Counted from the stretch's first letter, positions 34,968 through 55,299 are shown. The stretch: 64,000 bases of DNA from an uncultured Pseudomonadota bacterium (GCA_963836235.1 CAWIIP010000002.1:1152001-1216000), one strand, 5' to 3'. Program-made: numbers and translations. The notes: generated by a model not told the origin, from the sequence alone.

Positions 34968-35075
34968 ATTGAAATAAATAAAATTTTAAGTTCTAAATGT
35001 TTTCGTTCGATAGAACGAAGCGTGAGAGCGGCGCTCAACTCAAAATTTAGAATTTTCAAATCACGACGAATACGT

Positions 35076-35313
<238 letters not shown>

Positions 35314-39479: not shown

Positions 39480-39760
39480 CTAAAGATTGCGAAGAATTCT
39501 TTCCAGTTCTTTTCGGTCCAAGACACGCAAAACAACCACTCCCTTTTCAGTGGGTTCGAAGAGGGACCGGTAATTCCCGGTTCTTAAGCGGTAAAGATTC
39601 TTATAACCTTCCAGTTTTTTTAACTTGGGTGGGCCGGGCCAAGGGCGGGTTTGCGGGATTTTCAGGTCGTCCAAAATTTCCCCGGCGGCGGCTTTTTCAA
39701 GGGCTTTCAAATCCCTCAAAGCACGGGGTGAAAGCTCAACCAGGAGGGGCAAATCAGAGT
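39480..39760 (-). CDS. RelE/ParE-family toxin
   Basis: VELSPRALRDLKAL...KKLEG...YRLRTGNYR...V.RVLDRKE; start approximate. Confidence 0.8.
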
Positions 39761-40008
39761 CCCAGCCGCTTGCGGGCGTCCGAAAGGGAAACCCCGCCTT
39801 TCTTGCCATATTCCTTCCTCGACTCCTCGATTTGGGCCATGAACTCTGGCTGCTTATAAACCAAATCCTCTATTTCGTCCTCGGTCAGGTGCAGCAGGAC
39901 GGCCTGGGGCTTTCCATGGTTCGTAATGACGTATTTTTCCCCTTTTTCCACGTCCTTCATCACCGAAGGGGTTTTCAAGCGCAAGTCGCGCATATTCACG
40001 AATTTCAA
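39754..40008 (-). CDS. Phd/YefM-family antitoxin
   Basis: VNMRDLR...ITNHGKPQAVL; operator palindrome TGTTACT-6bp-AGTAACA at 40021-40040. Confidence 0.85.
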   Translation of the reverse strand: MKFVNMRDLRLKTPSVMKDVEKGEKYVITNHGKPQAVLLHLTEDEIEDLVYKQPEFMAQIEESRKEYGKKGGVSLSDARKRLGL

Positions 40009-40123
40009 GGGGGACTCCTATGTTACTTATTTGAGTAACATTATTTTAAGCCCCGGCCAGACGGAAAGCAAGCGTTCGGACAGCGGATTTTTTGTCCAAC
40101 CCGGGTCCCCGTCGTGGACAACT

Positions 40124-41071
40124 TCACCCGCCGCCTTTTCGATCATACCCACATTTCCCACAAAATTTTTGGTTGTGTTGAATGGGATGCCCGCACGTGA
40201 GACACCGCATGGTTTTTAACCAATAAAAGACTAAGTAATAGAAAAGGGCAAAAAACAAAACCCCGGTCAAAATTCCAAACAATGGGTTTATGAAAAGCAT
40301 CATAAAAAGATTGAAAAAGATAACCGAAATATAAGAGGTCGTATTTAATGAATAAAAACCACCATGGAATTGTTTGATGAAGGCGGGAAGATCCATATAA
40401 CTATTCGGGGGAACAAGAGGCTGAACAGGGTATCTAATTGTGGGAAAGGACTTGTCCTCAAATTTGAGTACCTCCGGGGTGGGGGTAGGTAACAATTCCG
40501 ATGTTCCCAATTCATTTGATTCCGACGCCCGCAACAAGAAGCTAATGTTTTTATAACAAAATGGGAGACCGTCAAAAGAATTACTCCGTTCCACAACCTG
40601 ATGAACAAGTTTCATATCCAGTTTTATATTTTTTCCACCCACGGCAAGAGTGAGCGGTTTTTGAATTGGGGTTGGCACGACGGTCGGGCAGAAAAAATAA
40701 TCGTTTTTAAAATCCTTAGGGAATTGTTTCGTATGCGGTTCTGTCTTGGGGAGGATTTCGATATTGATCCCGTCAAAATTCATTCCTAAAGCAGGGCCAG
40801 CAGTGCATATTCTTAACAAGAACAACGAACCATCCTTTTTTTGGAGCCATGCGCCATAGGTGTTCTGGAGCCCGTCCTTCGTTTTGCCCAGTTGAAATTT
40901 CAGATCGCATGGAAGTTTATAGGTCGTTTGCGGGTTGGTGACGCTCTCGAATGTTTGGACAAGCAAAGGCTGGTCCGATCGGCCATGGCCCTGAATCGCG
41001 AAAATGCCACAAAGAATGATGATCAGACTCATTACGAAATAATGACGAGGCAACAGATAACGCAGCTTCAT
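40124..41071 (-). CDS. Cassette: hypothetical membrane protein with C-terminal zinc ribbon
   Basis: N- and C-terminal TMs; CLTCG...CGKCG; start uncertain (41071 or 41107). Confidence 0.7.
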   Translation of the reverse strand: MKLRYLLPRHYFVMSLIIILCGIFAIQGHGRSDQPLLVQTFESVTNPQTTYKLPCDLKFQLGKTKDGLQNTYGAWLQKKDGSLFLLRICTAGPALGMNFDGINIEILPKTEPHTKQFPKDFKNDYFFCPTVVPTPIQKPLTLAVGGKNIKLDMKLVHQVVERSNSFDGLPFCYKNISFLLRASESNELGTSELLPTPTPEVLKFEDKSFPTIRYPVQPLVPPNSYMDLPAFIKQFHGGFYSLNTTSYISVIFFNLFMMLFINPLFGILTGVLFFALFYYLVFYWLKTMRCLTCGHPIQHNQKFCGKCGYDRKGGG

Positions 41072-41176
41072 CGATACCCACTTCCTATTCAGAAACGAAA
41101 GTGCCAACTTTATTATCCTGCTGTTTACCAGATTTTACCTGTCCACTCCGGGTCCCCGTCGTGGACAACCTTGGTG

Positions 41177-41842
41177 TCATAAGCTCCAAAATTCGTAACC
41201 AAGAGAAAATAACCCATCTAGATGTTGGCCAAAACCATTGATGGATCTCCCATCATTACTTTTAAGGGTATTGTTATAAATATAACCCTCCCCTAGTTCG
41301 AGTCTTGCGTCCAAAACAAAATTACCGAGTTCAAATGAAGCGCCAAAGTCGAACCCCCAATCCAATGGGTTGTAGGAAGGAGTGGTTGACGCTGGAAAAC
41401 CGGCGGGGACCGAAGGGCTATAGAGCCCCTGTAAAAGCAAACCGGTATAGGGCCCAAACAAAAGGTTTGCTTTAAAATCCTGGATGGTCAGAACCTTTCC
41501 TTTCAGGAGGAGCGGTATTTCCAAATAGGGGAAAGGGTAACGATAACTTGGATAGTTAGGATTACTGTAGACATCTTCATCCCCTTTTAAGACATATAAA
41601 AGCTCAGGTTGGAATGATAGGAAGTCATAGATTTTTATGTCGGAAAACAACCCCACATTGAACCCATAATAACCCGCACCCCCAAAGTAAAAAGTTCCTG
41701 TTCCTCCTACAGCTGGATAAATTTGGCAATTAGTAACACCCGCCTTAACCCCCAACGTGACTGGATCGGCCCAGGAATACATGGATGAAAAAAATTGGAG
41801 GAAAAGAAAACAACTAGTAATAAATAAGCTTGGCTTCATCAT
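41177..41842 (-). CDS. Cassette: porin-family outer-membrane beta-barrel
   Basis: LGVKAG, LSFQPELLYVLKG, YLEIPLLLK, GPYTGLLL, DWG, LGYEF. Confidence 0.8.
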   Translation of the reverse strand: MMKPSLFITSCFLFLQFFSSMYSWADPVTLGVKAGVTNCQIYPAVGGTGTFYFGGAGYYGFNVGLFSDIKIYDFLSFQPELLYVLKGDEDVYSNPNYPSYRYPFPYLEIPLLLKGKVLTIQDFKANLLFGPYTGLLLQGLYSPSVPAGFPASTTPSYNPLDWGFDFGASFELGNFVLDARLELGEGYIYNNTLKSNDGRSINGFGQHLDGLFSLGYEFWSL

Positions 41843-41932
41843 GCCTCCCTATTCTGGACAACTTATCTTGCCTTTATTTTAGCTCTTTGACGGCAAAAGG
41901 GTTGTCCACGACGGGTCCCCGTCGTGGACAAG

Positions 41933-42796
41933 TTAAACAACGGCCTTGATTCGTTTCCAATCCTCTTCAATAAAACCAACCACACTGTCATCCTGATTCG
42001 ATCCGATGATCTGATGGGCATGTTTCTTTAATTCCGGCTCGGCGTTGCTCACGGCGATGCTTCGATCCGCTATCTTGAACATCTTGATATCGTTCATGTG
42101 GTCCCCAAAAACCACCAATTCCCTGTCCTGAAGTCCCATTCGCTCCTGAAGAGTGCGGATCGCCTGGTCCTTGGTTGCCCGGTGGTCGTGGATGGTCAGC
42201 CAGTGCCAACCACGACAATAGATGTCCTCAACAAAATGGGTTTCCACCCCTGACCCATGACTTTTTTGGATGGTTTTTTCCAAAGGTTGTAAGGTTTCCT
42301 CTTTCCCAATGACCGTCAGGCAAACCACATCTTGGGATTTGATGGCTTCGAAATTCCTTACCTGGAGAAGCCGATGGTCGTTATTTTTCCTACGGTCGTT
42401 CAAATAAAATTCCATCCCATCATTCTTGATCTCGCTGTAATAAAGCCGGTCATTTTCGCCGTCGAACGCGGATACGAAAGGCAGGTGTCGATGATCCAAA
42501 ATGGTTTTGAGGAGGTCTTTCACGATCTCAGGTTGGATACAGTTGATGAGCTGATGGTCACCGGTTTGGTAATCAGAAATAAAAGCGCCGTTGAATTCGA
42601 TGACCGGCAAAGCAAGGGAAAGCCCCCTTAAAACCTGGCGGATGGAAACGATGCTCCGGGCACTGGCAACGGTGAACAGAAGTCCTTCCTTCAATAAAAA
42701 CTCTAAAGTGCGCAAGGAAACATCGGACAATTTCCCATTATTGGCAAGAAGGGTTCCATCCAAGTCCGATATATATAATGGTTTCGTCGAAGTCAT
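41933..42796 (-). CDS. Cassette: Cof-type HAD-IIB hydrolase
   Basis: SDLDGTLL, ASAR, FNGA, ATK, FGDHMNDIKMF. Confidence 0.92.
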   Translation of the reverse strand: MTSTKPLYISDLDGTLLANNGKLSDVSLRTLEFLLKEGLLFTVASARSIVSIRQVLRGLSLALPVIEFNGAFISDYQTGDHQLINCIQPEIVKDLLKTILDHRHLPFVSAFDGENDRLYYSEIKNDGMEFYLNDRRKNNDHRLLQVRNFEAIKSQDVVCLTVIGKEETLQPLEKTIQKSHGSGVETHFVEDIYCRGWHWLTIHDHRATKDQAIRTLQERMGLQDRELVVFGDHMNDIKMFKIADRSIAVSNAEPELKKHAHQIIGSNQDDSVVGFIEEDWKRIKAVV

Positions 42797-42875
42797 GTCC
42801 TATTATTCTTCATCGGTTTCTTTCGCGCCAAGGATTTTCCCTTGTCCAATCTGTGTCCCCGTCGTGGACAACCAC

Positions 42876-43307
42876 TTAACCAATCTTCTTATATAAAAAG
42901 TACCGTTCGCTTCCCTTTGGGAAGTGTTTTAAGGAACCAAATCTTTTAAAACCTAATTTTCGATAAAATCCCGGAGCTTGGAAATCGAAAGTGTCCAAAT
43001 GGACATACTTGCAGCCCCTCTTTTTTGCAACTGCCTCAGCCTTATTAAGGAGTTGAGTTCCAATGTCCTTGTTCCTGTGTTTTTCATCCACCCATAACAT
43101 TTTTACAAAAAGCCAGCCCCAATAGGTGCCGCTGACCAAACCGGCGATCAATTTCCCCTTGGAGTCGATGGCCTCAAAATCCAAGTCCTTCCAATTGAAA
43201 CGGCCAATCTTTTTCGCGTTATAAGCATTGAGTTCTTGGACAACCCTATTTCGGAATTTTTTATTCGATGACGATACGGGTTTGATTGAAGCTGAAGTTC
43301 TTGTCAT
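42876..43307 (-). CDS. Cassette: GNAT N-acetyltransferase
   Basis: LWVDEKHRNKDIGTQLL, LDTFDFQAPGFYRKLGF. Confidence 0.92.
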   Translation of the reverse strand: MTRTSASIKPVSSSNKKFRNRVVQELNAYNAKKIGRFNWKDLDFEAIDSKGKLIAGLVSGTYWGWLFVKMLWVDEKHRNKDIGTQLLNKAEAVAKKRGCKYVHLDTFDFQAPGFYRKLGFKRFGSLKHFPKGSERYFLYKKIG

Positions 43308-43410
43308 GCCGCCCCTTTACGCCTTAATAAATAATCATCGCCTGAAAAGGTTGTCCACGACGGGTCCCCGTAGTGGACAGATTTTTTATATCAAAAGGGC
43401 GAATTGGAAT

Positions 43411-44544
43411 TTATTGGATTTCCCGGATCAGGTTGTTGTCCTGGTCCGCGATGTAGATTTTCCCGGAGGAATCCACCGCGATTCCATCAGGCTGGTTGAA
43501 AAGGGCCTGGTAGCAATTTCCGTTGGTTGAACCCGCGACCCCCACTTTTCCCAACAGGGTCGTCACCACGCCCCCTGGGGTAATTTCACGGATCAGGTTG
43601 TTCCACGCGTCCGTCACGTAAACATTTCCGGAGGAATCCACCGCGACCCCAAGGGGCATATTGAAAGACGCCGCGGTCCCGATTCCGTCGGCCGAGCCGG
43701 CTGACCCGGACCCCGCCAGGGTCGTCACCACGCCTCCCGGAGTGATTTTCCGGATCATGTCGTTGTAAGAATCCGCGACATAAACATTCCCCGAAGAATC
43801 GACCGCGAGTCCAACGGGATTATAAAAAGACGCGGCGGTTCCGGTTCCGTTGGTGGCCCCCCAGGCACCCGATCCCGCCAGGGTCGTCACGACGCCGCCC
43901 GGGGTAATTTTCCGGATGAGGTCGTTGGTTTGATCCGCCACATAAACGTTTCCGGAAGCATCGACGGCTATTCCCCAAGGTCCGTTGAACGAAGCGGCGG
44001 TTCCCGTTGCGTTTACCGCGCAACAAGGCCCGCCTCCGGCCAAGGTGGTCACCACCCCACCGGGGGTTATCATCCGGATCAGGTTGTTAATGGTATCCGC
44101 GACATAAACATTGCCCGAAGAATCCACCGCCAGGGCGTAGGGAGTATGAAAGGACGCGGCGGTCCCGGTGGCGTTGACGGCTCCAATCGCCCCGGACCCG
44201 GCCAAGGTCGTTACTACCCCACCTGACGTGATTTCCCGTATCAGGTTGTTGTAAGTATCCGCCACATAAACATTCCCGGAAGAATCCACGGCGGCCCCCG
44301 TAGGGAAATTGAACGACGCGGCTGTACCAGTGGCGTTGACGGCTCCAACCAACCCGGACCCCGCCAAGGTCGAAACGATTTTCCCGCTACAGGTGGGGGT
44401 AGGCGAACCTGTGGCGGTAAAGGTTTTGGTGGGAGGTGGAGCGGGAGTTGGAACGCTCAGAGGGCCTAACGTATAGGTCTTCTGGCAAGCCAGGGGGAAC
44501 AGGCCGATCAAGAGGATTACCGCGATAAGGAAAAGTCGATTCAT
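43411..44544 (-). CDS. Cassette: NHL-repeat lipoprotein
   Basis: Lipobox PLAC; six repeats of F..P.G.AVDSSGNVYVAD..N..IR.IT. Confidence 0.9.
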   Translation of the reverse strand: MNRLFLIAVILLIGLFPLACQKTYTLGPLSVPTPAPPPTKTFTATGSPTPTCSGKIVSTLAGSGLVGAVNATGTAASFNFPTGAAVDSSGNVYVADTYNNLIREITSGGVVTTLAGSGAIGAVNATGTAASFHTPYALAVDSSGNVYVADTINNLIRMITPGGVVTTLAGGGPCCAVNATGTAASFNGPWGIAVDASGNVYVADQTNDLIRKITPGGVVTTLAGSGAWGATNGTGTAASFYNPVGLAVDSSGNVYVADSYNDMIRKITPGGVVTTLAGSGSAGSADGIGTAASFNMPLGVAVDSSGNVYVTDAWNNLIREITPGGVVTTLLGKVGVAGSTNGNCYQALFNQPDGIAVDSSGKIYIADQDNNLIREIQ

Positions 44545-44638
44545 ACTTGCCTCAATTATAGAAGCGTAACGAAGATTGGATTATACCCCTTTTACCTGTC
44601 CACGATGGGTCCCCGTCGTGGACAAGTGTTTTCGTTGA

Positions 44639-44923
44639 TTAATGAGCGGCCAGATGGTGGCGTTTCTTTTTAGCTAGATAGTGCTGGTCCAATCCTTGGC
44701 GAAGGATCGATTTGATAACTGCTTGGCGGCTTACATTCATTTCGCGGACCAACCCATCCAATTCCTTAAGCATGTTTTCCGCGAAATCCACATTGACCCG
44801 GCGGATGGCCGGCATCATTTTTCCGTGGTTCGTAAAATGTTTCGAGATGTTCTCCCCTTTGTCAGCCATTTGAGCTAATTGTTCAGCCGTTGGAACTGTT
44901 TTTGCCTTATGAATGGTTTTCAT
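44639..44923 (-). CDS. Cassette: CopG/RHH antitoxin (BrnA-like partner)
   Basis: RRVNVDF..ML.ELD...VSRQAVIK; overlaps the BrnT-like gene. Confidence 0.8.
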   Translation of the reverse strand: MKTIHKAKTVPTAEQLAQMADKGENISKHFTNHGKMMPAIRRVNVDFAENMLKELDGLVREMNVSRQAVIKSILRQGLDQHYLAKKKRHHLAAH

Positions 44924-45185
44924 ATAATTTCCTTTCTTCCTTAGTGGATTTCCAAAGAGTGACTAAGTGAATGTACTCGCCATCCCGATCCGTTCTCTCT
45001 TCATAGATCACGGTATAGAGCCTTTCCCCAACCCAACCAATAGCCCGCCATTGCTCCGGTAAATCCGAACGCTGGTCAAGGTAGTAAGGGCTTTCCCAAA
45101 GCATTTGGGCTTCCTCGAAACCAATGCCACGTGCCCGGTTCCGACGAAGGCTATTGCTCTTGTTCCTGTCGAACTTAAACCGCAT
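44907..45185 (-). CDS. Cassette: BrnT-family toxin
   Basis: F.FDRNKS...GIGFEEA...AIG...R......I.L.T..KST..ER..YE; palindrome GTATAAC-T-GTTATAC at 45197-45211. Confidence 0.85.
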   Translation of the reverse strand: MRFKFDRNKSNSLRRNRARGIGFEEAQMLWESPYYLDQRSDLPEQWRAIGWVGERLYTVIYEERTDRDGEYIHLVTLWKSTKEERKLYENHS

Positions 45186-45302
45186 CTACGCTCCATGTAT
45201 AACTGTTATACCATCTATTCCTGATTACCTCAAGAAAGCATCCGGCACGAATTTAGGTGTCCACGACGGGTCCCCGTCGTGGACAGCCTTTGAATGGGTT
45301 CC

Positions 45303-47021
45303 TCATTCAAAACCATAGAATGAATAAGGAACTGATTTTGAATCTTTCACCGTGCTGTTGACATAAACTTTACCGGAATCGCTGTCGTAGAGCCAACCTA
45401 TGTTACTACCAGTGGGGACTTCCCCCTTTTTGGCCATAGTGACATAATTTCCTTCCGGGCTTTTGGCACTTGCGACAAAAGCGCTAGTGACCTGGACCAT
45501 GGGAATAACTTGGGTTCCGGATGTATCCCTGCTTTCCATCACAGCCTGTTCCAGTTTTTCGGATGAGGCCGGCCAGCGATGGTGTTTTTGATGGTATGAA
45601 TGAACCCCTATATAAATCCGCAACAAATCACAACGAGTACAAGTTTCGTTCGTTTTTTCGACCATCTGGGCAAAGCGTGGCCTAGAGAACGAACTCATCA
45701 ACCATGTTTTTCTCCAGTCATCATCACGGACATGTTCAGCGGCGGCGGGACCCATTTTGAGAGCTTTCATATATTGGACACCATAATCATATTGGGAACC
45801 CTGGTCGAATAGCAAAAAGGGCCAATAAATGATTCCAAAGAATTTGCTAATAGCATTGCCTTCGAGGGTTACATATCCCCACCAACCTAATTGGCAAAAA
45901 TCCGTCAAATAAAATTTAAACAAGTCGTTTTGCATCGCTGTAAAAAATTCAGTTCTGATCCTACTCGGCTCAATGAAAGGAAAAAGCTCCATCCCTCCTT
46001 TCCCTTTTACCTCTAAAAGCGGCAAAACTCGCTCGGCTGGAGCCACCATCATTCCCGCAACGGCCACACCTATCATTTCTCCAATTAAGGTATGGGTTTG
46101 ATCCACCATATCTGCCAATAGGAACCCCTCCTCAAGGCTGCGGACCGCACCTTGGGCATTTCCGTCCATGGCTTGCACGGTCGCCCGAAAACGGATCAAA
46201 CGCGCAAGAGACAAAAGATGTGTCATCCGTGGAATAGCGATTTGCCAAGAGGGTTTATGATTCCAGTCAATTCCCCAATCTACTCCCTTGTATTCCGTAG
46301 TGGCGTCGATCAACCGGAAAGCATCTTCATGTTCTTTCAACAACTTTCGGGCATAGGCCTTGTCCTCGGCTGTCACGAGACCCTGGGAAACCCGGTGGGT
46401 GAAATAAATCGCGAATTCATCTTCAGCCATCTTTCCAAAAAAGGGCTGGTTGGTCAGGTTGGGCTGATTTTTATGATTCCCATATTTCCGTGTGTTTTCG
46501 GAAAACCTGCCATTGGGTGCGGGGTCATCATAAATTGCCGATAGCCCTCCGAATTTACGCATGGAAGGCGAGTTCCAGGCCTCGTTGATGAGGACAACGG
46601 CGTTTTGATCGTCCGGCAGCACGGGTGCATTTGACGAGGGTTCAAGGCTGTACCCGCCTTCTATGACGTCTTTTTGTGCGATGTTCAGGGAGATTTGCCC
46701 CATATACCGCCAAAAAAAACCGCCAGCTACATAACCCAGGATCATGAATAATAAAAACGGAAGGATGGAGCTAGCGAGTGCCCGAAACCCATTTTTCTTT
46801 TTGCGGTATTTCGGGAACGATTTTCTCCACAACCAAAAAAGGAAAGGGACTGATGCCGCCAATAACAGAAGAGTGATTGCCCAAAACCAAAAGGACTTGG
46901 TATCGGACCAAGGGGTTAAGCCCGACCAAGGCATGATTTTGCCAAGCCAGAAACCCGGCAAAGTTACCAACAATAAACCAGCTACCACTGGGGGCCAGAC
47001 GGTTTTCCAAAGAGATTTCAA
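45303..47021 (-). CDS. Cassette: hypothetical membrane protein
   Basis: 572 aa, three N-terminal TMs; helical body; C-terminal YHQKHHRWP...GWLYDS segment weakly reminiscent of pseudopilin heads. Confidence 0.7.
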   Translation of the reverse strand: MKSLWKTVWPPVVAGLLLVTLPGFWLGKIMPWSGLTPWSDTKSFWFWAITLLLLAASVPFLFWLWRKSFPKYRKKKNGFRALASSILPFLLFMILGYVAGGFFWRYMGQISLNIAQKDVIEGGYSLEPSSNAPVLPDDQNAVVLINEAWNSPSMRKFGGLSAIYDDPAPNGRFSENTRKYGNHKNQPNLTNQPFFGKMAEDEFAIYFTHRVSQGLVTAEDKAYARKLLKEHEDAFRLIDATTEYKGVDWGIDWNHKPSWQIAIPRMTHLLSLARLIRFRATVQAMDGNAQGAVRSLEEGFLLADMVDQTHTLIGEMIGVAVAGMMVAPAERVLPLLEVKGKGGMELFPFIEPSRIRTEFFTAMQNDLFKFYLTDFCQLGWWGYVTLEGNAISKFFGIIYWPFLLFDQGSQYDYGVQYMKALKMGPAAAEHVRDDDWRKTWLMSSFSRPRFAQMVEKTNETCTRCDLLRIYIGVHSYHQKHHRWPASSEKLEQAVMESRDTSGTQVIPMVQVTSAFVASAKSPEGNYVTMAKKGEVPTGSNIGWLYDSDSGKVYVNSTVKDSKSVPYSFYGFE

Positions 47022-47226
47022 ATTAATATTCCCTTCTCCATTACATGCAAAAGAAAATTGTTAGAAATCCCAAAACACCTCGTTGGCCCATAATAAAGCC
47101 GCCTCGATTGGCCGGACCGGAACCGGTTTATCTCATCTTGGTCCGTTGAGATATGCTCCTGAAAACAGGGGCCATCCATTTTTCCTTGTCCACGACGGGT
47201 CCCCGTGGTGGACAACCAAAACCTAT

Positions 47227-47811
47227 TTATTTGCGATCAACCCATTTTTCCACAGATGTTGGAATATAAGCTTCCATTTCCTTAAGAAGTTGTTCCGGCT
47301 CTTGGGCCACCAATATCATTTGACGGTGTTCCTCCCTCAAAAAACGCTGGTCAACGGCGTGGTCCAAAAAATCCATCAAACGGTCGAAATAACCACGGAC
47401 GTTTAAAAAACCAACCGGTTTCGAATGGATGCCCAACTGCGCCCAGGTCAAAACTTCTGTCACTTCTTCCAATGTTCCCAGACCCCCGGGCATGGCAACG
47501 AACCCGTCCGACAATTGGAACATCTTGGTCTTTCTTTCGTGCATTGTTGGAACAACGTGAAGTTCCCCCAGGCCCTTATGGCCAACCTTTTGATTGAGTT
47601 CTTCGGTAATGACCCCAATCACTTCCCCCCCATGGCTCAAAACCGAGTTGGCGATCTCCCTCATTAGACCCACATTCGCCCCCCCATAGATAAGCGAACT
47701 ACCCCTCTGCGCCAGCCTCTTTCCCAACTCGCGGGATGCATCGACATACTCGGGGTGAGCCCCTGGGCTGGAGGCACAATTGACGCAAATTCTTTTTAGT
47801 TTTCCAGACAT
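47227..47811 (-). CDS. Cassette: LOG-family nucleotide phosphoribohydrolase
   Basis: YGGANVGLM, MHERK, PGGLGTLEE, QLGIHSKP. Confidence 0.93.
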   Translation of the reverse strand: MSGKLKRICVNCASSPGAHPEYVDASRELGKRLAQRGSSLIYGGANVGLMREIANSVLSHGGEVIGVITEELNQKVGHKGLGELHVVPTMHERKTKMFQLSDGFVAMPGGLGTLEEVTEVLTWAQLGIHSKPVGFLNVRGYFDRLMDFLDHAVDQRFLREEHRQMILVAQEPEQLLKEMEAYIPTSVEKWVDRK

Positions 47812-47888
47812 TTAAACCACCTTTATAAAAAACCATCACTTAAATTTACCTATCCAAGAAGGATCCCCGTCGTGGACAACCAAAATAT

Positions 47889-48572
47889 TTAAGCGGGGAG
47901 CAATCCTGGCAATTCCATCAAACTCTGTATAACGGGAACTTCTAAACCCGATTCCACACCCCTGCTTTTGCGGTCCAGCCAAATACCTTTCATCCCGGCT
48001 TTTTGACTGCTCCTAGCATCTGTTTCTAATCGATCTCCTACGTAAACACAATCTGTCAATGGAACTCCCGCTTGTTTCGCGGCCAATTCAAAGATGGCTT
48101 GTTCGGGTTTGGCGCAACCCACCTCACCGCTGATGATGACGGTCGAAAAATATGGTTCCAAGTCTGTCTTTCGGATTTTGGACCGGTGTTGTTCCTTTTC
48201 ACCGTTGGTGATTAGCCCTAGGGAGCGTCCTTTCAGGGACCGCAAGCATGGAAGGGAGTCGGTGAAGAGTTCCCACCGAGATTCATAGGTATCCAGGTAC
48301 ACCTGAAAACGGGCATCTGCCTCGATCTCGGAAAGAGGATGGGAAAAGATTTCCCTCACCCTACCCCTGCGGCGTTCCTCTGTAGTCAACCTCAGGAAAG
48401 GAGAATTTGACTGGAAATATTTTTCCGAAACGGTTTCCCAACGCAAAAGAAAATCTTCCAAGTCTTCCTTAAAAGAAGACCGGTAAGTTTCATAGACCTT
48501 TGTGGCCCCGGCTTTGGCTGCGGCGCTGTGGTCCAAAAGAGTATCATCGAGGTCAAAAAATACCATGGTCAT
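47889..48572 (-). CDS. Cassette: HAD-IA hydrolase
   Basis: FDLDDTL, ITNG, KPE..IF, VGDRLETD. Confidence 0.92.
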   Translation of the reverse strand: MTMVFFDLDDTLLDHSAAAKAGATKVYETYRSSFKEDLEDFLLRWETVSEKYFQSNSPFLRLTTEERRRGRVREIFSHPLSEIEADARFQVYLDTYESRWELFTDSLPCLRSLKGRSLGLITNGEKEQHRSKIRKTDLEPYFSTVIISGEVGCAKPEQAIFELAAKQAGVPLTDCVYVGDRLETDARSSQKAGMKGIWLDRKSRGVESGLEVPVIQSLMELPGLLPA

Positions 48573-48696
48573 CCTTTTATCCCTTGTCCACGACGGGTCC
48601 CCGTCGTGGACAAGGTCTGACTAACCTTTTTATTCTGTGTAGTATTTCGTGTCCAAACAAAACTTGGGATAGGAAAGATCGATTTTCGAAACACTT

Positions 48697-49095
48697 TTAA
48701 ACATGGGGAAACACCTTTCTTATCCATGCCTGCAAAACCAAAGCGTTGGTACAAGCGCATAAAACAATAATCAAAAACCAAGTAAAATATTTCCATTTAA
48801 ATTTGGAAGTGTATAAAAGAAACATTCTTATCAGCAACACATAAACGACGATGAAGCCATATAGTGGCACCGCGCTCCCTTCCAAGCTCCAATTAATTGA
48901 TAGCGCTTTATAAACAATCCGAAGAAGAATAAAGGGCGCGCTAACGAAATAGTATTGAACATTGGCGCTAATAATTTCGAGCCAGAAATAATTTGAATTG
49001 TTCAGGATTTTTACTTCTTTTGTTGCCCACAGAACAAAAGACACACCCGCAACTAAAACCATTTCACTGAGTAGTTTAGATTTATTAATATTCAT
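48697..49095 (-). CDS. Cassette: hypothetical four-TM protein
   Basis: Hydrophobic AT-rich ORF; the ORF-track start at 49194 crosses a repeat, so a downstream Met is preferred. Confidence 0.6.
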   Translation of the reverse strand: MNINKSKLLSEMVLVAGVSFVLWATKEVKILNNSNYFWLEIISANVQYYFVSAPFILLRIVYKALSINWSLEGSAVPLYGFIVVYVLLIRMFLLYTSKFKWKYFTWFLIIVLCACTNALVLQAWIRKVFPHV

Positions 49096-49237
49096 GTTTA
49101 TTAATGGTTTCCCGAGTTGGTCTCGAACTGGCCCGGCATTCATTCTCAATTTCACCTGTCCACGATGGGTCCCCGTCGTGGACAACCTTTTCACTAATTT
49201 TTAACCCCACCACAAGAATCACTTTTGAGTTTTCTAT

Positions 49238-50137
49238 CTATTCTTTATTCCAATCCCTCAGAAGAGAATCCACTTCATATTTCAAATGCCTGTTTTTTGT
49301 GCTTTTTGAAAAATCTTCCAATGATTTTTTAACATTGTCATTTTTCATCTTCGTTAAAATCAAAAGCGCTTTATCTCGCAGATCATCTTTTTGGGATTCA
49401 TCTCGCAAAACTTTTATAATCGGCGAAAGTATCAGCTTTTGAACATCCATCGAAGCGCCCGATTGTTCTAAAAGCTCCATTGCCTCTGCCGCTTTAATTG
49501 AAACTTCCGGTGTCATATTCAAAGCTTTAATGAGGATCGGCTTGGCTTTTTCGTCCACATAGTTTCGATCTTTTAAAAAGTCATATTCATAAAGCGAATT
49601 TATTTCGTACCATTCATTATTTTCCAACCACCTTTGGTAATAAGGGGTCACAGTTTTTAAATCATCCAAACGATACAAAATATACACGGCATTTTTATCT
49701 TTATTGTTTCCAGTCAAAAACTCCTTCATTTTTTCAATAATAATTTTTTTATCATTCTTTTGAAATACCGGATCATTTTTCAAAGATGAGACTAACGCAC
49801 CCAGGACATAGAACGGGGAAAGGGATTTTAAATCGGTGGGATTATTTATTAAATCCAACACAGGCCCGATGGCCCGTCGGTCCCGCGAATTTGAAATCTG
49901 TTTTAAGGCTGCCTGTTTTTCCTCTAAATTCCCATTCTTAAGTTTTTCCAATAACTCGGATAAATGAGCCTGTATTGTTTGGGCTTCGGCCCGGGTTAAT
50001 TCTTCGGTCTTAACTCGACTTAACCGTTTTTCATCTTCATTACCAACGCTCTGTTTCTCGGTTTGGCCAAAACCGGGCGGAACACTTAAAAAGGTTAGCG
50101 TTATTAAAAATAATGCATTCCTCATAATTGATTTCAT
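49238..50137 (-). CDS. Cassette: exported HEAT-repeat-like protein
   Basis: Signal peptide; helical repeats (AIGPVLDLI, AKPILIKAL, LRDKALLIL). Confidence 0.65.
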   Translation of the reverse strand: MKSIMRNALFLITLTFLSVPPGFGQTEKQSVGNEDEKRLSRVKTEELTRAEAQTIQAHLSELLEKLKNGNLEEKQAALKQISNSRDRRAIGPVLDLINNPTDLKSLSPFYVLGALVSSLKNDPVFQKNDKKIIIEKMKEFLTGNNKDKNAVYILYRLDDLKTVTPYYQRWLENNEWYEINSLYEYDFLKDRNYVDEKAKPILIKALNMTPEVSIKAAEAMELLEQSGASMDVQKLILSPIIKVLRDESQKDDLRDKALLILTKMKNDNVKKSLEDFSKSTKNRHLKYEVDSLLRDWNKE

Positions 50138-50233
50138 ATAACACCTTTCAATTTTTATGGCTTTTCACCTGTCCAATGCGGGTCCCCGTAGTGGACAGCG
50201 TTTCATCTTCCTAAACGTCAATTATTTCCTTTT

Positions 50234-50626
50234 TCATTTCTTCTTTTTAAATTCCCCTACTTTAAATATTGCTTGGGCGCAAACTGCGATAACACAATTT
50301 ATTGCAACCATTGCGATCAACAACAAGACGTCCGAATCCCCCGTTAGGGCTGGAATAATGCCAAGGTAATACAGATACAACCGTAGTCCGATCATAAACA
50401 AAGCGGAGAGCAACCAAATAAGGGTGAATTTAGAAATAAATTTTCCCTTATCATCCCTAACAAATATGAAAACCAAAAAAACCATAAGAATAAAATAAAC
50501 AATAGTGCCACCGACAAGATGATGCAATTCCTCGGATAATCCCAAGGGATCCAAAATCAAATCCGACGCCCACCAGCCGCCGGCACCGATGAATATTGCG
50601 ATTAATGTTTCTATCCAGGTTGCCAC
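50234..50626 (-). CDS. Cassette: hypothetical four-TM protein
   Basis: GTG start with AGGGG RBS; four hydrophobic segments. Confidence 0.65.
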   Translation of the reverse strand: MATWIETLIAIFIGAGGWWASDLILDPLGLSEELHHLVGGTIVYFILMVFLVFIFVRDDKGKFISKFTLIWLLSALFMIGLRLYLYYLGIIPALTGDSDVLLLIAMVAINCVIAVCAQAIFKVGEFKKKK

Positions 50627-50679
50627 TTATTCACACCCCTAGTGCTTTTCCCTGTCCACGATGGGTCCCCGCCGTGGAC

Positions 50680-50831
50680 ATGTTCCAATCCATGAACCAT
50701 TCTCCATCCATCCTTAGACCCGCGCCACAAGGATAAGCCCTCTAAAACCCAAGCAGGCCCTTCACCTTATCGGTGGCCGATTTGGCCTGGTCGGCCGTGT
50801 TGACCGCGCTTTGATAATTTTTCACTCCGGC
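50680..50831 (-). pseudogene. Diverged copy of the ParB-like gene 3' end and its downstream flank
   Basis: Matches 53569-53718; encodes AGVKNYQSAVNTADQAKSATDKVKGLLGF* versus AGVKGYQSAVNTADQAKSATDRVKSLLGF*. Confidence 0.85.
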
Positions 50832-51198
50832 TCCCCGCCGGGAACAGGCTAAGACCGGAACTGAAGGTAAAAGTTCGGGTCAAGGGGAAAAACCGGGGAG
50901 TGGGATGGGGAATTCCAAGGCAGATAAGGCAAATAGTAAAATTAATTTGACGAAATCAGCCGGTTTTTTTCAGGCCTAATTTATGTTCGATTTTTCGGAC
51001 GCGCTCTTCGAGAGTTGCATTATCAGACATGGAACGCTTTAAAATGGAGTTCATGAGAGTTTGGTAAGGGATTCCCTGTCTTTTGCCTTCCTCGATAAGC
51101 CAATGGTAAACCGACTCATCCAACCGGAAGGTTTTCTGGATCTTGGAACCTTTGGAAGCTAAGAGAGGGCCCTTATGGACCTTCGCTTTAGAAAAATC

Positions 51199-52685
51199 GT
51201 AACTGTTCAGGCCCCTTGCAGAGCAAAAGGAGATATGGCAACATCGTAGAGGATGAACGACACCCCTTCAATACCAACCAACTGTCCGAATTGTGAGCGT
51301 TTGCAGGCTAGGGTGGAAACTCTGGAATCCGAAGTCCAAGAGTTAAAAGCCTTGGTACGGGAGTTGACGGCCCGCTTACAGCAAAACTCTTCCAATTCGT
51401 CCAAACCACCCTCTTGCGATAGTCCTTTTCAAAAATCCCAACAATCGAAGCCCAAGAGTGACCGAAAACCAGGTGGCCAACCGGGACACATGGGATGCAC
51501 CCGAAAGCCGTTTCCCAAGGAAATGGTGACAGATGTACAGATTCACTTGCCCCTGAAATGCGGGGAATGCGGCCATGAACTGGCCAAACGGGCTGGGAAG
51601 AGAGACCCCGAACCTCAAGTGCATCAAGTGGTGGAAATCCCACCGTTCAAGCCGGAGGTGATCGAACACCAAGTCCAGGGCCGGTGTTGTTCTTCCTGCG
51701 GGAAGGTAACCTGGGGAATGCTGCCGGAGGACGTTCGGGGAAGTTTCGGACCTCGGTTAACGGGGTTGATCGCCTTCTTCAGTGGCCGGTGCCAAATGAG
51801 TAAACGGGTGGTTCAGGAGGTTTTGGAAGGGTTGTTAGGAGTGCGGATGGCCCTGGGAAGCTTGAGCGCCAAGGAACGAGAAGTCAGTGAAGCCCTGAGA
51901 GAATCCTGGGTGGAAGCAAAAGAAGCGGTACGGCAGTCGGCGGTGAAGAATGCGGATGAGACGGGATGGTACCTGAGCGGGAAATTGAAATGGCTCTGGG
52001 TTGGCACAACGCCGCGGGTGGCGGTTTTTGAGGTTCAGGAGCACCGGAACCAGGAAGCGATGAAGGAATTGCTGGGTGAGAAGGCGAAAGGGATAGTTGG
52101 GAGCGACCGGTTCGGAGCCTACACACCGATCCCCTTGGAGCAAAGGCAGTTGTGCTGGGCCCATTTCAAGAGGGACTTACAGGGATTGATCGAGTCGGGG
52201 GAAGAGAAAGGCCAAAGGATCGGGAAAGGCTGTCTTCGGACACTGAAGGCGGTGTTTGAGGCGTGGGGGAAATACGAGGATGAGAAGGTGGGCCGAAAGG
52301 GCTTGCGACGAAGACTAGAACCACTAAAGACACGATTAGCCCGATGGTTAAAGCGGGGCCGGGAAGGTCCGGCGGACAGTACCAGCCGCCTTTGTGGGCG
52401 GGTTCTAAAACTCTATGAAGCTTACTGGACCTTCATGAGGGTGGAAGGGGTTGAACCGACGAACAACCTGGCGGAGCGGGACCTTCGGACGGCTGTTTTA
52501 TGGCGCAAGCGCAGCTATGGAAATCGGAGCCGGGAAGGGTGCCGGTTCACGGAACGCGTACTGACGGCAGTACAGACGCTTCGAAAGCAAAAGCGGAATG
52601 TGTTGGATTATCTGGCTGAGGCGGTGCTGGCCCACCGGGCAGGAAGATTGGCGCCCTCGTTAGTGTCCTTGGCCTGAACAGATAC
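51199..52685 (+). mobile_element. IS66-family insertion sequence, single-ORF type, 1487 bp
   Basis: TIRs GTAACTGTTCAGGCC / GGCCTGAACAGATAC; 8-bp TSD GAAAAATC at 51191-51198 and 52686-52693. Confidence 0.93.
51253..52677 (+). CDS. IS66-family transposase
   Basis: NSSNSSKPPS, GGQPGH, zinc finger, ADETGW, SDRF, QLCWAH, TNNLAERDLR. Confidence 0.93.
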   Translation: MNDTPSIPTNCPNCERLQARVETLESEVQELKALVRELTARLQQNSSNSSKPPSCDSPFQKSQQSKPKSDRKPGGQPGHMGCTRKPFPKEMVTDVQIHLPLKCGECGHELAKRAGKRDPEPQVHQVVEIPPFKPEVIEHQVQGRCCSSCGKVTWGMLPEDVRGSFGPRLTGLIAFFSGRCQMSKRVVQEVLEGLLGVRMALGSLSAKEREVSEALRESWVEAKEAVRQSAVKNADETGWYLSGKLKWLWVGTTPRVAVFEVQEHRNQEAMKELLGEKAKGIVGSDRFGAYTPIPLEQRQLCWAHFKRDLQGLIESGEEKGQRIGKGCLRTLKAVFEAWGKYEDEKVGRKGLRRRLEPLKTRLARWLKRGREGPADSTSRLCGRVLKLYEAYWTFMRVEGVEPTNNLAERDLRTAVLWRKRSYGNRSREGCRFTERVLTAVQTLRKQKRNVLDYLAEAVLAHRAGRLAPSLVSLA

Positions 52686-52743
52686 GAAAAATCATATTCT
52701 TTTTTCATAGTTTTCCCGTTCCTTTCGCGTGGCTTTTCTGGCC

Positions 52744-53043
52744 TTAGCGTATTTCCGAAATCAATTCTGGATGGGATTTAAGAATGCGGATCAGTTTTGA
52801 CGCGGAACCACTGGGCCGTCGAATGCCCTGTTCCCAATGTTCAACGGCATTAGCACTTGCGCCCACAACTCCCGCAAACCCGGCTTGGGTCAAATGCAAA
52901 GCTTTACGAACGCCTTTCACTTCATCAGCGGTAGCCGGTTTTGGCCGGTAGCTTTCCCGCATCCCGTGAAGTTTCTTGCCTTTTTTGATCTCGATGGATT
53001 GCTTGAGGCTCTTCCGCATCAGCTTGAAGTCTTTATCGTTCAT
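52744..53043 (-). CDS. HigA-like XRE HTH antitoxin
   Basis: VRKALHLTQAGFAGVVG...VEHWEQGIRRPSG. Confidence 0.85.
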   Translation of the reverse strand: MNDKDFKLMRKSLKQSIEIKKGKKLHGMRESYRPKPATADEVKGVRKALHLTQAGFAGVVGASANAVEHWEQGIRRPSGSASKLIRILKSHPELISEIR

Positions 53044-53460
53044 TTCTTACCTCCTGTTTTCCCTTTGCCCAAAGCCTGCCGCAAATCTTGGACTAGGATC
53101 TTTTCTTGTCCGGCTGTTAGATCCGGAGCCTTTCGCTTATCGATGATGAAAAAGAGGTAAATGTCATCAGGCTCATCGAAAAAGTACCAAACCCGGTAAC
53201 CACCGCTATTCCCCTGTGGCGAACCCACCAGGTGAGCCACACGACTTGGGTGTGCCCGATCAAAATTTTAAAAAGATCGGGTGCCCTTCGGGCCTCTTGG
53301 TTGAGGCAACGCGCAACTTATGAATGCCACCCCCTAAAAGCTTCCCGCCAGCGGGGTTGTTGTTGATGGCTTCTTCAATCGCGACTTGTAAACCATCCTC
53401 ACGAATGGCGTCGATCAGTTTTGAATAGATAGGCGACTGGATAAAATGGTGTCGTTCCAT
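53040..53460 (-). pseudogene. HigB/RelE-family toxin frameshifted by a 73-bp insertion
   Basis: Deleting 53211-53283 joins GGIHKLRVASTKRPEG to NSGGYRVWYFF...DKRKAPDLT in frame; operator palindrome TCCTACA-T-TGTAGGA at 53480-53494. Confidence 0.8.
53211..53283. repeat. ~70-bp structured mini-element, copy 1 (copy 2 at 55342-55409)
   Basis: CCCCTGTGGCGAACCCACCAGGTGAGCCACACGACTTGGGTGTGC versus CCCCTGTGCTGAACCCACCGGGTGAAGCACATGCCTTGGGTGTGC, each followed by a different hairpin. Confidence 0.8.
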
Positions 53461-53628
53461 TACCCATCCTTTTAATATATCCTACATTGTAGGACTTTTT
53501 GGAAAACAGTCAAGATTCACTTAAACCGGCTGATAAAGGTTGTCCACGACGGAGCCCCGACGCAGACAATGTTCCAATCCATCAACCATTTTCCATCCAT
53601 CCTTAGGCCCGCGCCACAAGGATAACCC

Positions 53629-55299
53629 CTAAAACCCCAGCAGGCTCTTCACCCTATCAGTAGCCGATTTCGCCTGGTCGGCCGTGTTGACCGCGCTTTG
53701 ATAACCCTTCACTCCGGCACCTATTTGGGCTAACACGTCTCCCCCTTTTGCGGGGGTGGGGTTACCCGAAGAGTTGGGCGCTTGCTTGGTCTGTACCGAG
53801 CCCGTTTGTGTGGCTCCGGTTCCTCCGCCACTCTGGCTCGGCACAACCAAGGCTTGTCCCCCGGCTTGAGGGCCGGGGGACAGGTGACCCGAAACAACCT
53901 GGCTTGCCGGGGCTGAGTTGGAAACAATCCTCCCTATTCCCCCTTGGCCTTGAAAGGTCGGGCGGGTGGCGGATGGGCTCAACCAGGAGTATAAGATCCC
54001 AGTCCAAAATCTATTCATCAACCGGCCCGTGAGATTGATGAGGGTGCTTCCCACGAACAGAAAAAGAACAAGGGTGAGCAATGTCGCCAAAGTGGGGTTC
54101 TTGATGCCCAACCCCGCGAAGAGGCCCCGGGCCCGGTGGAAAAGCCGGGTCAACCCGGGTAAAAGCCGGTTCATCAATGGGGAAGGTATATGAAGCTTCT
54201 TCCCCAATTCGTGGCCCGCGATAGTGGTTGCGACCTGGGAATGGAGGTCCGGCTTCGCCGAGTTAGAAGTGAGGAGTTGGGAGTTAGGAGTTGAACCGGC
54301 TTTAGCCCCTTTACCACCGCCCGTCTCCCCAACCGCCTTCACAGGAGAAACACCCCTCACCCTACCCTCTCCCGCAAGGGGCGAGGGGTTTACCACCGAG
54401 CCCCCTTTTGTGGCTCCGGTACCTACGCCACTCTGGCTCGGCGCAACCACCCGTTGTCCGCTATCGCGGCCAAGGGCGATAGAACCCATCGAAGCTTGTC
54501 CCCCGACTTGAGGGTCCGGGGACAGGTGGGCTTGTCCAAAGGCTTCCGGGGGGTTGCCGGCCGAAACCCACTTCACCAGCGCCTTCACCTGGGGGCCACT
54601 CATTTCACGGGACAGGATGACCGGTAGGGTCTTCTCCACCAGGGCCTGAGCCTCCTGGAGGGTCCGCTTATTCCAGAGGCTGGCCAGCGGAAACGCGACT
54701 TTCTCTAAAAGACCCCATTTTTCCTCATTTTTCGATGGGCCTTTTTTCAGGGGTTTTTCAACATTCCGGAACGGTTCCGGATTGCCATTATTCCCCTTAT
54801 TTTTAGATGGGTCTTCCAGCAAACTTTCCCGGATCAAACTCCGGGAGGCGGGGTTAAGAACCGCTAGCAGGCTTCGCGCCCGCCGAACCCAGGTGCTATC
54901 CACTCCCTCAAGGGCCCCAATCGCCTCATCGGTCAGCCTCGAACCCGGCGCGAAATAATTTTCCCAACTCTCGTACTCTTCCAGCCAATTCAGGGCCTCA
55001 CTCCGGTTGGACGTACGGGCCAGCCGTTTGGCCTCTTCCAGGCTGACGTGGAAAATCTCGGCTTCAATCAGGGGTATCCCCAGCTGCCGGTAAACCGTCA
55101 AGCGCCTCTGGCCCGCGATGACGGACTTTCCATCCCCTCCCCAAACCCAAATCCGGGGGATGGTGCCCCCCGCCTCCACGTGGGCTTTCAGGGCGGCCAA
55201 ACCCGGCACGGACATGGTCTTGCGGGGGTTCCAATCGGGCACCTCCAACCCATCCGTAGGCAAAAAGCGGATATTGGCAGGCTTGGGTTCTTGATCCAT
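53629..55299 (-). CDS. ParB/Spo0J-like protein with low-complexity linker and C-terminal TM segment
   Basis: NPRK, IAGQRRL (GxRR), HTH LTDEAIGALEGVDSTWVRRARSLL, hydrophobic TLATLLTLVLFLFVGSTLI; RBS AAGGGAG before ATG 55299. Confidence 0.75.
   Translation of the reverse strand: MDQEPKPANIRFLPTDGLEVPDWNPRKTMSVPGLAALKAHVEAGGTIPRIWVWGGDGKSVIAGQRRLTVYRQLGIPLIEAEIFHVSLEEAKRLARTSNRSEALNWLEEYESWENYFAPGSRLTDEAIGALEGVDSTWVRRARSLLAVLNPASRSLIRESLLEDPSKNKGNNGNPEPFRNVEKPLKKGPSKNEEKWGLLEKVAFPLASLWNKRTLQEAQALVEKTLPVILSREMSGPQVKALVKWVSAGNPPEAFGQAHLSPDPQVGGQASMGSIALGRDSGQRVVAPSQSGVGTGATKGGSVVNPSPLAGEGRVRGVSPVKAVGETGGGKGAKAGSTPNSQLLTSNSAKPDLHSQVATTIAGHELGKKLHIPSPLMNRLLPGLTRLFHRARGLFAGLGIKNPTLATLLTLVLFLFVGSTLINLTGRLMNRFWTGILYSWLSPSATRPTFQGQGGIGRIVSNSAPASQVVSGHLSPGPQAGGQALVVPSQSGGGTGATQTGSVQTKQAPNSSGNPTPAKGGDVLAQIGAGVKGYQSAVNTADQAKSATDRVKSLLGF

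Follow-up and report, generated by a model that had tools for sequence, protein, structure and literature searches.

Arrays of putative mobile gene cassettes bounded by a 28-bp inverted-arm site, and a candidate Xer-like recombinase, in an uncultured bacterial lineage

The genome of an uncultured bacterium (G000; 3.97 Mb in five contigs, ~50% G+C) contains an array of unrelated genes separated by copies of a 28-bp site. The array lies in the window described here (the whole stretch of 64,000 bp that was analysed, C2:1152001-1216000), where 14 sites, all in the same (+) orientation, span window coordinates 40093-53568. Each site has two 11-bp inverted arms around an asymmetric 6-bp spacer, TGTCCACGACG-GGTCCC-CGTCGTGGACA, and the inverted repeat of the consensus is perfect. 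Eleven window copies, all on the + strand, were found with up to three mismatches (none expected in 100 dinucleotide-preserving shuffles); a search with the outer arms only gave three more sites (42843, 47851 and 50170), and a scan at up to six mismatches gave one more (53541). By our own estimate, ~0.03 copies at up to six mismatches are expected by chance in 4 Mb on both strands. The spacer is unchanged in 11 of the 14 sites, the deviants being 42843 (TGTCCC), 47851 (GATCCC) and 53541 (GAGCCC). A preliminary description of this DNA had reported 14 co-oriented sites, 11 with an intact spacer, and these mismatch-tolerant scans re-found them.

Twelve of the 13 intervals between sites hold a single minus-strand gene or toxin-antitoxin (TA) pair apiece, coding for a zinc-ribbon protein, an outer-membrane protein (OMP) beta-barrel, two HAD hydrolases, a GNAT acetyltransferase, an NHL-repeat protein, a BrnT/RHH pair, a LOG protein and four proteins without a Pfam family. 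The genes start and end close to the sites, as had been claimed: gene ends lie only 2-3 bp from a site (41933 next to the site end at 41930, and 40124 next to 40120), and one start (48572) is 12 bp from the next site (48585). The leftmost unit (39480-40092, minus strand) consists of a ParE-type toxin gene (39480-39809; Pfam ParE_toxin) and a small upstream open reading frame (ORF), and is bordered by a site on the right only. That site, site 1 (40093-40120), has three mismatches, all in the inner left arm. Cassette 1 (40121-41139) codes for a 327-aa protein with a C-terminal zinc ribbon (gene 40124-41107) and is followed by site 2 (41140-41167); cassette 2 (41168-41902) codes for an outer-membrane beta-barrel protein (41177-41842; Pfam OMP_b-brl_2) and ends at site 3 (41903-41930), a perfect copy. 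Cassette 3 (41931-42842), with a Cof-type HAD hydrolase gene (41933-42796), is separated by site 4 (42843-42870; degenerate left arm) from cassette 4 (42871-43351), a GNAT acetyltransferase gene (42876-43307). Cassette 5 (43380-44596), coding for the NHL-repeat protein (43411-44544), lies between site 5 (43352-43379; right-arm variant GTAGTGG) and site 6 (44597-44624; left-arm variant CGATG), and cassette 6 (44625-45257), with a BrnT toxin (44907-45185) and an RHH antitoxin (44639-44923), between site 6 and the perfect site 7 (45258-45285).

In the right part of the array, cassette 7 (45286-47186) codes for a 572-aa protein without a Pfam family (45303-47021) and is followed by site 8 (47187-47214). 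Cassette 8 (47215-47850; LOG / lysine-decarboxylase-like protein, 47227-47811) and cassette 9 (47879-48584; HAD hydrolase, 47889-48572) are separated by site 9 (47851-47878), which has a degenerate left arm, and the latter ends at site 10 (48585-48612), again perfect. Cassette 10 (48613-49156) contains a small ORF without a Pfam family (48697-49122), cassette 11 (49185-50169) a gene for a 299-aa protein with at most a weak HEAT_2 match (49238-50137), and cassette 12 (50198-50652) a gene for a 130-aa protein without a Pfam family (50234-50626); they are set off by site 11 (49157-49184), site 12 (50170-50197; left-arm variant CAATGCG) and site 13 (50653-50680). The array ends with site 14 (53541-53568), whose left arm is intact and whose spacer and right arm are decayed, and no full or half sites were found beyond it up to window position 64000.

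The thirteenth interval (50681-53540) is composite. It had been described as a composite of TA relics, and such relics are there, together with an MqsA-like antitoxin gene (52744-53043, minus strand) and small ORFs, but it also contains a plus-strand IS66-family transposase gene (51253-52677; DDE_Tnp_IS66, DUF6444 and zf-IS66). The transposase is inserted into a conserved element of ~300 bp, and the two halves that flank it (50952-51201 and 52686-52743) are contiguous in five relatives (G001, at C9:259665-259961, G018, G005, G023 and G021). The right flanks of site 13 (50681-50750) and site 14 (53569-53640) are ~90% alike, so the interval starts with the relic of a 3' gene end, from a gene similar to the 591-aa ORF that lies to the right of the array (53629-55404).

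The genome contains 67 copies of the site, which allows a closer description. Among these 67 aligned copies, the spacer and its neighbours (positions 11-18) and the right arm carry 1.0-2.0 bits at each position, and left-arm positions 7-10 have 0.6-1.1 bits, with a few alternative versions (CACGAYG, CACTCCG and CAATSCG); the inner left arm is variable against a right arm that stays constant. Beyond the 28 bp there is only weak conservation, a T-tract at -6 to -3 and an A at +29. The sites end in TGTCCAC/GTGGACA and the RYYYAAC/GTTRRRY ends of integron attC sites are not present, nor, by inspection, do the arms resemble those of classical dif, both as stated in the preliminary description. There is no covariation between the arms (A19 accompanies T10 in 18 of 94 sites and C10 in 38 of 220), which argues that the palindrome is not maintained as a hairpin; judged from its sequence, the site resembles one that is bound as double-stranded DNA, with a strict half-site and a relaxed one. 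Only one of the 14 window sites was flagged as an intrinsic terminator, and it is antisense to the genes. The array shows no excess of promoter-like motifs (19, compared with 15.9 +/- 4.3), relaxed scans for variants with other spacer lengths returned just a few decayed copies, and a scan of the window against Rfam at gathering thresholds found two tRNAs and nothing else.

The array is one of several. Dispersal over the genome in the manner of repetitive extragenic palindromes (REPs), a test set beforehand, is not what is seen: 61 of the 67 copies sit in 12 arrays of 2-14 sites, and orientation is uniform within each array. The arrays are of a chromosomal type, with direct repeats throughout all 12 and on contigs of 0.33-2.05 Mb. 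In 40 of 45 ORF-bearing intervals the longest ORF is oriented relative to the site as in the window, and the median interval is 912 bp. The cargo of the other arrays includes an AraC regulator, a peroxiredoxin, a PIN toxin, a BrnA antitoxin, LysM/DUF3108 and pirin-like proteins, as well as NHL and SUFU-like proteins, a glycosyltransferase and an IS4-like transposase. Judged by GC skew, the origin would be near C2:0.9 Mb and the terminus may be near C1:0.14 Mb, and there is no site at either.

We searched a set of 41 genomes, consisting of G000, 24 others of its family, one of a sister family and 15 from eight other families of the phylum. With up to three mismatches the same 28-mer is present in 18 of the 24 other family genomes (13 genera) and, in one copy only, in the sister-family genome, and in none of the 15 genomes of the other families; the reversed pattern, used as a control, has no match in any of the 41. 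When the variable positions were freed, at least one copy was found in four of five previously negative family genomes. At least 13 genera share an identical site sequence, with core genes at 74-78% identity. Among the matches listed, the named public records with the site are nearly all of candidate division FCPU426, from bog, palsa and soil, and viral contigs gave no site matches.

The window array is part of a 21.4-kb island (39476-60877) that is found in G000 only and comprises the array and ~7 kb of other accessory genes. Its borders are the stop codon of a conserved 382-aa gene on the left and a terminator hairpin before AhpC on the right, and the flanking genes (37.2-39.47 kb, and AhpC at 60.88-61.5 kb) abut in all five relatives compared, one of the same genus (G001) and four of other genera (G018, G021, G023 and G005). 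We note that a ParE-type toxin unit is present at both ends of the island, ParE alone at the left (39480-39809) and Phd/YefM with ParE at the right (60153-60805).

The contents of the array recur elsewhere. For eight of the 13 intervals, homologues at the nucleotide level occur in at least one of the five relatives, none of them at the syntenic locus. The OMP cassette is 97% identical to a copy in G018:C40, although the flanking core genes of that genome are only ~74% identical; in the alignment the two sequences are unrelated to the left of the site and identical to the right, with homology beginning within the site. Copies of cassette 6 at 82-87% identity are site-flanked in three relatives (G023:C38, G001:C9 and G005:C25), a 75% copy of cassette 7 begins at a site (G005:C83), and an 85% copy of cassette 9 lies between two sites (G018:C37); cassette 8 has copies at 80% (G023:C39 and G018:C83) and cassette 4 at 75% (G001:C6). 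Nine homologous cassette copies were inspected in fetched loci, six with sites at both ends, two with a site at one end and one with neither. Within G000, the array at C4:56841-58801 holds a second copy of the NHL cassette (43380-44596; duplicate at C4:57529-58801) together with the site variants that border it, the rare GTAGTGG in the right arm (also at C4:58774) and CGATG in the left arm (also at C4:57529), and the outer flanks differ. These comparisons support the view that the intervals behave as mobile cassettes shared between arrays and genera. Gene content between sites is then not fixed among relatives, as the preliminary description had anticipated: the array is missing at the syntenic locus in all five, and its cassettes are found at other places with homology that ends in the site.

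The position of exchange within the site was mapped by comparing all pairs among 370 unique sites from G000 and 126 fetched loci; in the final set, 17 sites abutting group II intron-like ends were removed and a flank was required to be at least 90% identical. In pairs sharing only the left flank (13 pairs in 9 families), mismatch at positions 7-10 is 0, 0, 0.08 and 0.08, compared with 0.37-0.57 for random pairs. Where the right flank alone is shared (21 pairs in 16 families), the same positions are random-like (0.14-0.57) and mismatch at position 20 is 0, compared with 0.21. Rare variants agree, with position 11 following the left flank and positions 18 and 19 the right flank, in one family each. 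Since left-arm variants follow the left flank and right-arm variants the right flank, exchange is placed between positions 11 and 19. This segment includes the spacer, and the invariant bases in it bar finer mapping.

An alternative junction from site to site is present in an environmental population. Three soil-metagenome runs from one study were searched as contigs only, with shares of the stretch of 0.20, 0.14 and 0.05. In run X1, a Logan contig joins 41148 to 48594, passing from the left arm of site 2 (the CTC variant) to the right flank of site 10 and skipping 7445 bp; 20 letters fit both sides, and the shorter side is 99 letters. Logan contigs are assembled with 31-letter words and, if this applies here, an overlap of 20 letters is too short for a misjoin caused by a repeat. 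We take the contig as supporting evidence for a site 2-site 10 junction, not as proof. In run X3, a low-depth contig has 39481 onwards directly after a site. Weaker joints were not used as evidence, namely 47198 to 50681 (with a side of 20) and those within the NHL gene in X3.

No recombinase gene was found within the array, in agreement with the preliminary description, and the genome was searched for enzymes that could act on the site. It codes for eight tyrosine recombinases, two serine recombinases, no IS110-type transposase and three Y1 transposases. The best match to the integron integrase model (IntI, TIGR02249) scores 40.9 bits against a cut-off of 265, and none of 32 genomes of the order has a match (E<=1e-40), although the model was also silent in all 14 control genomes and its sensitivity is thus undemonstrated. 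A 353-aa Xer-like tyrosine recombinase is encoded outside of the window, at C1:328837-329895; it scores 169 bits against XerC, under the model cut-off, and its nearest solved relatives are Pyrococcus abyssi XerA and Escherichia coli XerD. It aligns with P. abyssi XerA over GLRVSE, LRHSF, GHS and a near-terminal tyrosine, conserved tyrosine-recombinase motifs which we take to hold the catalytic residues.

A search for a recombinase co-occurring with the site had been proposed, and the Xer-like protein is what it yields. Orthologues (56-79% identical) are present in 23 of the 24 family genomes, the genome without one being 63% complete, and in the sister family, and in none of the 15 genomes of other families (E<=1e-30); it is the sole recombinase found in nearly all site-bearing genomes. 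Conversely, nine genomes of the other families (G026-G040) have a canonical XerD over the curated cut-off and a second Xer, whereas the site-bearing order (G000-G025) has no XerD match over the cut-off. The classical dif core has the motif CATAAT-N-TTATGTTAA; cores of this type were found in four of the five XerCD-bearing relatives searched, and no convincing one in G000. We infer that this lineage has swapped XerC/XerD and classical dif for one Xer-like enzyme, which would be expected to bind a near-palindrome and for which the 28-bp palindrome is the only conserved candidate site. The phyletic co-occurrence suggests that the Xer-like protein may be the cassette enzyme, a proposal we make tentatively.

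Other recombinases were considered. A 425-aa tyrosine recombinase is patchy, being present in seven of the 24 family genomes. The tyrosine recombinase gene nearest to the window array (33612-34715, 5.4 kb away) is one of six paralogues that are 57-70% identical and belongs to an integrative module (30296-35167) with a TraG/VirD4-like coupling protein, two unknown ORFs, the integrase, tRNA-Ser(TGA) and tRNA-Ser(GCT), syntenic in five genera. These integrases, of the type found in integrative and conjugative elements (ICEs), fit worse than the Xer-like protein, as they are missing (E<=1e-20) from four of the 24 family genomes and present in four site-less families. One relative with many sites (G021; ~50 pattern matches with up to three mismatches, 28 forward and 22 reverse, most sites matching on both strands) has a single copy. 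A 278-aa protein with Resolvase and Recombinase domains (C2:163827-164663; L161:6828-7664) ends 35 bp before the degenerate first site of a three-site array at C2:164698 and is about half the length of its full-length paralogue in G000 (515 aa). Its homologues (56-81% protein identity) lie near sites in three of ~107 site-centred loci (L035, L074 and L033), with unrelated flanks, and the protein may be an alternative enzyme or part of an element that targets the site. IS110-family transposases lie near sites in relatives; G000 has none. Tandem pairs of other tyrosine recombinases occur in several site-bearing genomes (e.g. G018:C97, G023:C34 and G005:C26).

Several elements exploit the site. 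IS110 relatives are known to target attC sites (IS1111-attC) and REPs (IS621, ISPpu). In ~120 site-centred loci two ORF families recur most often, reverse transcriptases of group II introns with 12 ORFs in 11 loci and IS110-family transposases with nine ORFs in eight loci, and five of the nine IS110-family ORFs (L041, L065, L084, L104 and L123) lie ~70-220 bp from a site. Intron ends adjoin complete sites in either orientation, and two of the three group II intron copies in G000 are beside sites. Introns against or inside sites were seen in L127 (G018:C40) at 6551-8061, at C1:223031-224771 and at C2:1476170-1478284; in L127 and at C1:223031 a half-site alone is left beside the intron. Group II introns also target integron attC sites, according to one report (PMC3001079). 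The targeting shows that the site is a recognisable and abundant safe target, and does not discriminate between models of what the site does.

Some features near the array are of separate interest. Two further 11-6-11 palindromes, TGTCCCCCGGC-TTGAGG-GCCGGGGGACA, at 53855-53882 and 54497-54524, have the outer TGTCC/GGACA in common with the main site; the putative 591-aa ORF, itself without a Pfam family, contains both, and G000 has no other copy. A GC-rich 43-bp hairpin-type repeat (CCCCTC...GAGGGG) at 54348-54391 has two copies in G000 and dozens of 95-100% copies in G005 and G018, and is a separate family. Upstream of the integrative module, an 854-aa ResIII/DEAD helicase (26734-29298) has a C-terminal endonuclease domain and is type III restriction-like.

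We consider it probable that this array, like the 11 others on the chromosome, is made up of mobile single-gene cassettes bounded by a common 28-bp site, and the case is stronger still that cassettes move by site-specific recombination at these sites, which we regard as very likely. In the proposed scheme, a cassette would leave as a circle that carries one hybrid site and could enter again at any other copy; the reaction would be conservative and site-specific, and the strands would be exchanged in the central spacer. As insertion of a circle would always yield direct repeats, this accounts for both the uniform orientation of each array and the layout of one gene per interval. The enzyme would probably be a tyrosine recombinase binding both arms as a dimer, with the Xer-like protein as the best candidate; the site would then be a multiplied dif-like site, and the arrays integron-like structures built from Xer/dif parts. 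A gene-capture platform with short directly repeated sites had been proposed from the sequence and is supported here, and the central crossover and a candidate Xer-like recombinase elsewhere in the genome go beyond that proposal. More speculatively, such a platform may have arisen independently of integrons, the replacement site having multiplied after the Xer/dif exchange to become the universal junction of the cassettes, and a housekeeping recombinase now moving these, also between genera, so that a genome would hold a dozen integron-like arrays driven by Xer; we find this conceivable, and hold it with some doubt.

A number of observations weigh against parts of this interpretation. The empty loci of the relatives contain no site (up to six mismatches), so that the island did not enter here through a pre-existing one. 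The Xer-like gene is ~41 kb from the nearest site and adjoins no array, and neither a dif-like palindrome nor a site was found beside it; xerS and xerH genes have a dif-like palindrome beside the gene. Its link with the site amounts to one phylogenetic split, the order versus the rest of the phylum, and any order-specific gene would correlate equally. One 97% complete genome (G017) has no site even with the relaxed pattern, yet has the Xer-like gene, in two pieces, and in site-poor genomes the isolated sites have no common syntenic position, and no conserved primary dif copy was recognised. In the crossover mapping, a first-pass signal in which position 10 was linked to neither flank was rejected, as the 17 intron-abutting sites among the 370 dominated its pairs, and the right-hand limit is based on few informative pairs, the right arm varying little. 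The read-derived junction evidence is one contig of low depth (2.57) from one study. Of the events that the preliminary description had suggested looking for in reads, a deletion-like junction between sites 2 and 10 was recovered, and no circular cassettes were seen.

If the cassettes move by site-specific recombination, the enzyme could also be a different one: a serine recombinase cutting at the central TC, an ICE-type integrase, or an unrecognised protein. Small serine recombinases have crossover sites such as res site I and hix, to which a 28-bp site with inverted arms is also suited, and both the 278-aa serine recombinase 35 bp from an array, with its non-syntenic homologues near sites, and the ICE-type integrase 5.4 kb from the window array are at hand. 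The former, however, may be truncated and was seen next to just one of the 12 arrays in G000, and the latter, besides its distribution among families and its single copy in the site-rich G021, has tRNA-Ser genes and a TraG-like gene as neighbours, an arrangement known from integrative elements; we think this reading, recombination at the sites by another enzyme, unlikely. It is less probable again that the palindrome is a REP-like or structural repeat with which cassette boundaries coincide through short-homology recombination. Its perfect 11-bp inverted repeat, the insertion of group II introns and IS110-family elements beside it (group IIC introns target stem-loops) and the overlap of the 11-19 crossover window with the longest run of identity between sites would all be in keeping with this. 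The copies, however, are concentrated in accessory arrays instead of being dispersed near core genes, their arms do not covary, one in 14 is terminator-like, the Y1-transposase genes are not site-flanked, and the sequence is identical over at least 13 genera with core genes at 74-78%; homology alone explains neither why the asymmetric spacer is the most conserved part nor why each array has a single orientation.

Two further explanations we consider far less credible. The array could be the remnant of an ordinary integron, a cluster of attC sites lacking an integron-integrase (CALIN), with unusually short attC sites and an IntI elsewhere; the layout, the co-oriented genes, the typical cargo (TA, GNAT, HAD and unknowns) and the intron and IS110 targeting all resemble one. 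That it is one is nevertheless highly improbable: IntI is found neither in G000 over the cut-off nor in the 32 genomes of the order, and the 28-bp site is without RYYYAAC/GTTRRRY ends, crosses over centrally and not six bases from an end, and has no hairpin covariation. The site could instead serve chiefly as the operator of a DNA-binding protein specific to the lineage, by which accessory genes would be silenced or co-regulated, as each cassette gene starts 12-70 bp downstream of a site on the coding strand and the sequence is of a symmetric, dimer-binding type. This would leave unexplained the breaks inside the site, the arm variants that move with their flanks, the uniform orientation and the asymmetric conserved spacer, and as the chief role of the site it is the most improbable of these readings; operator and mobility roles are mutually compatible.

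Site-specific recombination at the 28-bp site, which we prefer, invites comparison with known systems. Integrons are the textbook system for stockpiling and shuffling promoter-poor single genes, and are defined by IntI and folded attC sites. The arrays resemble integrons and CALINs in that mostly single, co-oriented and unrelated accessory genes or TA pairs are each followed by a site, with variable contents; in that cassettes are common to several arrays and taxa and a genome has several integrase-less arrays; and in that the sites are hit by group II introns and IS110-family elements. They differ in having no IntI, a simple 28-bp core of double-stranded type as opposed to a folded attC of 55-140 bp, no R''/R' consensus ends and no visible attI or cassette promoter (Pc) platform, and homology breaks at positions 11-19 of 28 and not at G|TT in the terminal R box. 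Of four testable integron features, three are thus lacking (IntI, attC architecture and crossover position) and co-oriented variable cassette arrays are present. What is seen is an integron-like outcome with a minimal 28-bp site and without IntI or attC: numerous arrays with a single gene in each unit, TA pairs among the cargo, and cassettes exchanged between genera. IntegronFinder-type surveys look for attC and IntI, as given in their description (PMC4889954), and this uncultured soil and peat lineage should escape them.

REPs and bacterial interspersed mosaic elements (BIMEs) with their REP-associated tyrosine transposases (RAYTs) are likewise short, abundant intergenic palindromes targeted by IS110-family elements; the sites described here, in contrast, are clustered in accessory arrays, identical across genera and without covariation, and none lies within 10 kb of the three Y1_Tnp genes in G000. 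Core sites of the loxP, FRT and dif type have inverted binding arms around an asymmetric overlap region of 6-8 bp that is the same in partner sites, and the present sites share this design: GGTCCC and the bases next to it carry 1.4-2.0 bits in the 67 copies, and each array has one orientation. XerH/difH, XerS/difSL and archaeal XerA/dif are similar in that one Xer-type recombinase is expected to act on a near-palindromic site of 28-31 bp. The dif of such single-recombinase systems is one chromosomal site, whereas the candidate site here has up to ~70 copies that delimit cassettes. Helicobacter pylori, for example, is described in one report as having one xer gene and a cognate dif (PMC3325230).

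The pdif sites of Acinetobacter are the other close parallel. In one account they are 28-bp 11-6-11 sites with one arm more conserved, and border small accessory modules that include TA pairs (PMC6449649); the host Xer enzyme is encoded elsewhere and insertion sequences specialise on the sites (PMC6449649 and PMC10132070). As described there, the pdif arms are dif-like and the 6-bp centre is variable, and the modules have sites in inverted orientation and are on plasmids. Here, by contrast, the arms are by inspection unlike dif and the centre is the most conserved part, as expected if any site must recombine with any other, and the arrays are chromosomal with direct repeats only; where Acinetobacter has XerC/XerD, this lineage has one Xer-like enzyme and neither of the two. 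A literature search, with supplements outside its scope, returned no description of the site or of Xer-type cassette arrays with direct repeats, and no paper on the genome biology of FCPU426 bearing on the site. If the Xer-like protein is indeed the enzyme, the case would show that an enzyme of chromosome maintenance can be recruited to run a general platform for gene cassettes, and the dif modules of Acinetobacter would be no oddity of a single genus. A short defined site with a single candidate recombinase also makes a testable system, and could become a compact recombination tool. In its logic, the cassette platform is close both to integrons and to the dif modules of Acinetobacter.

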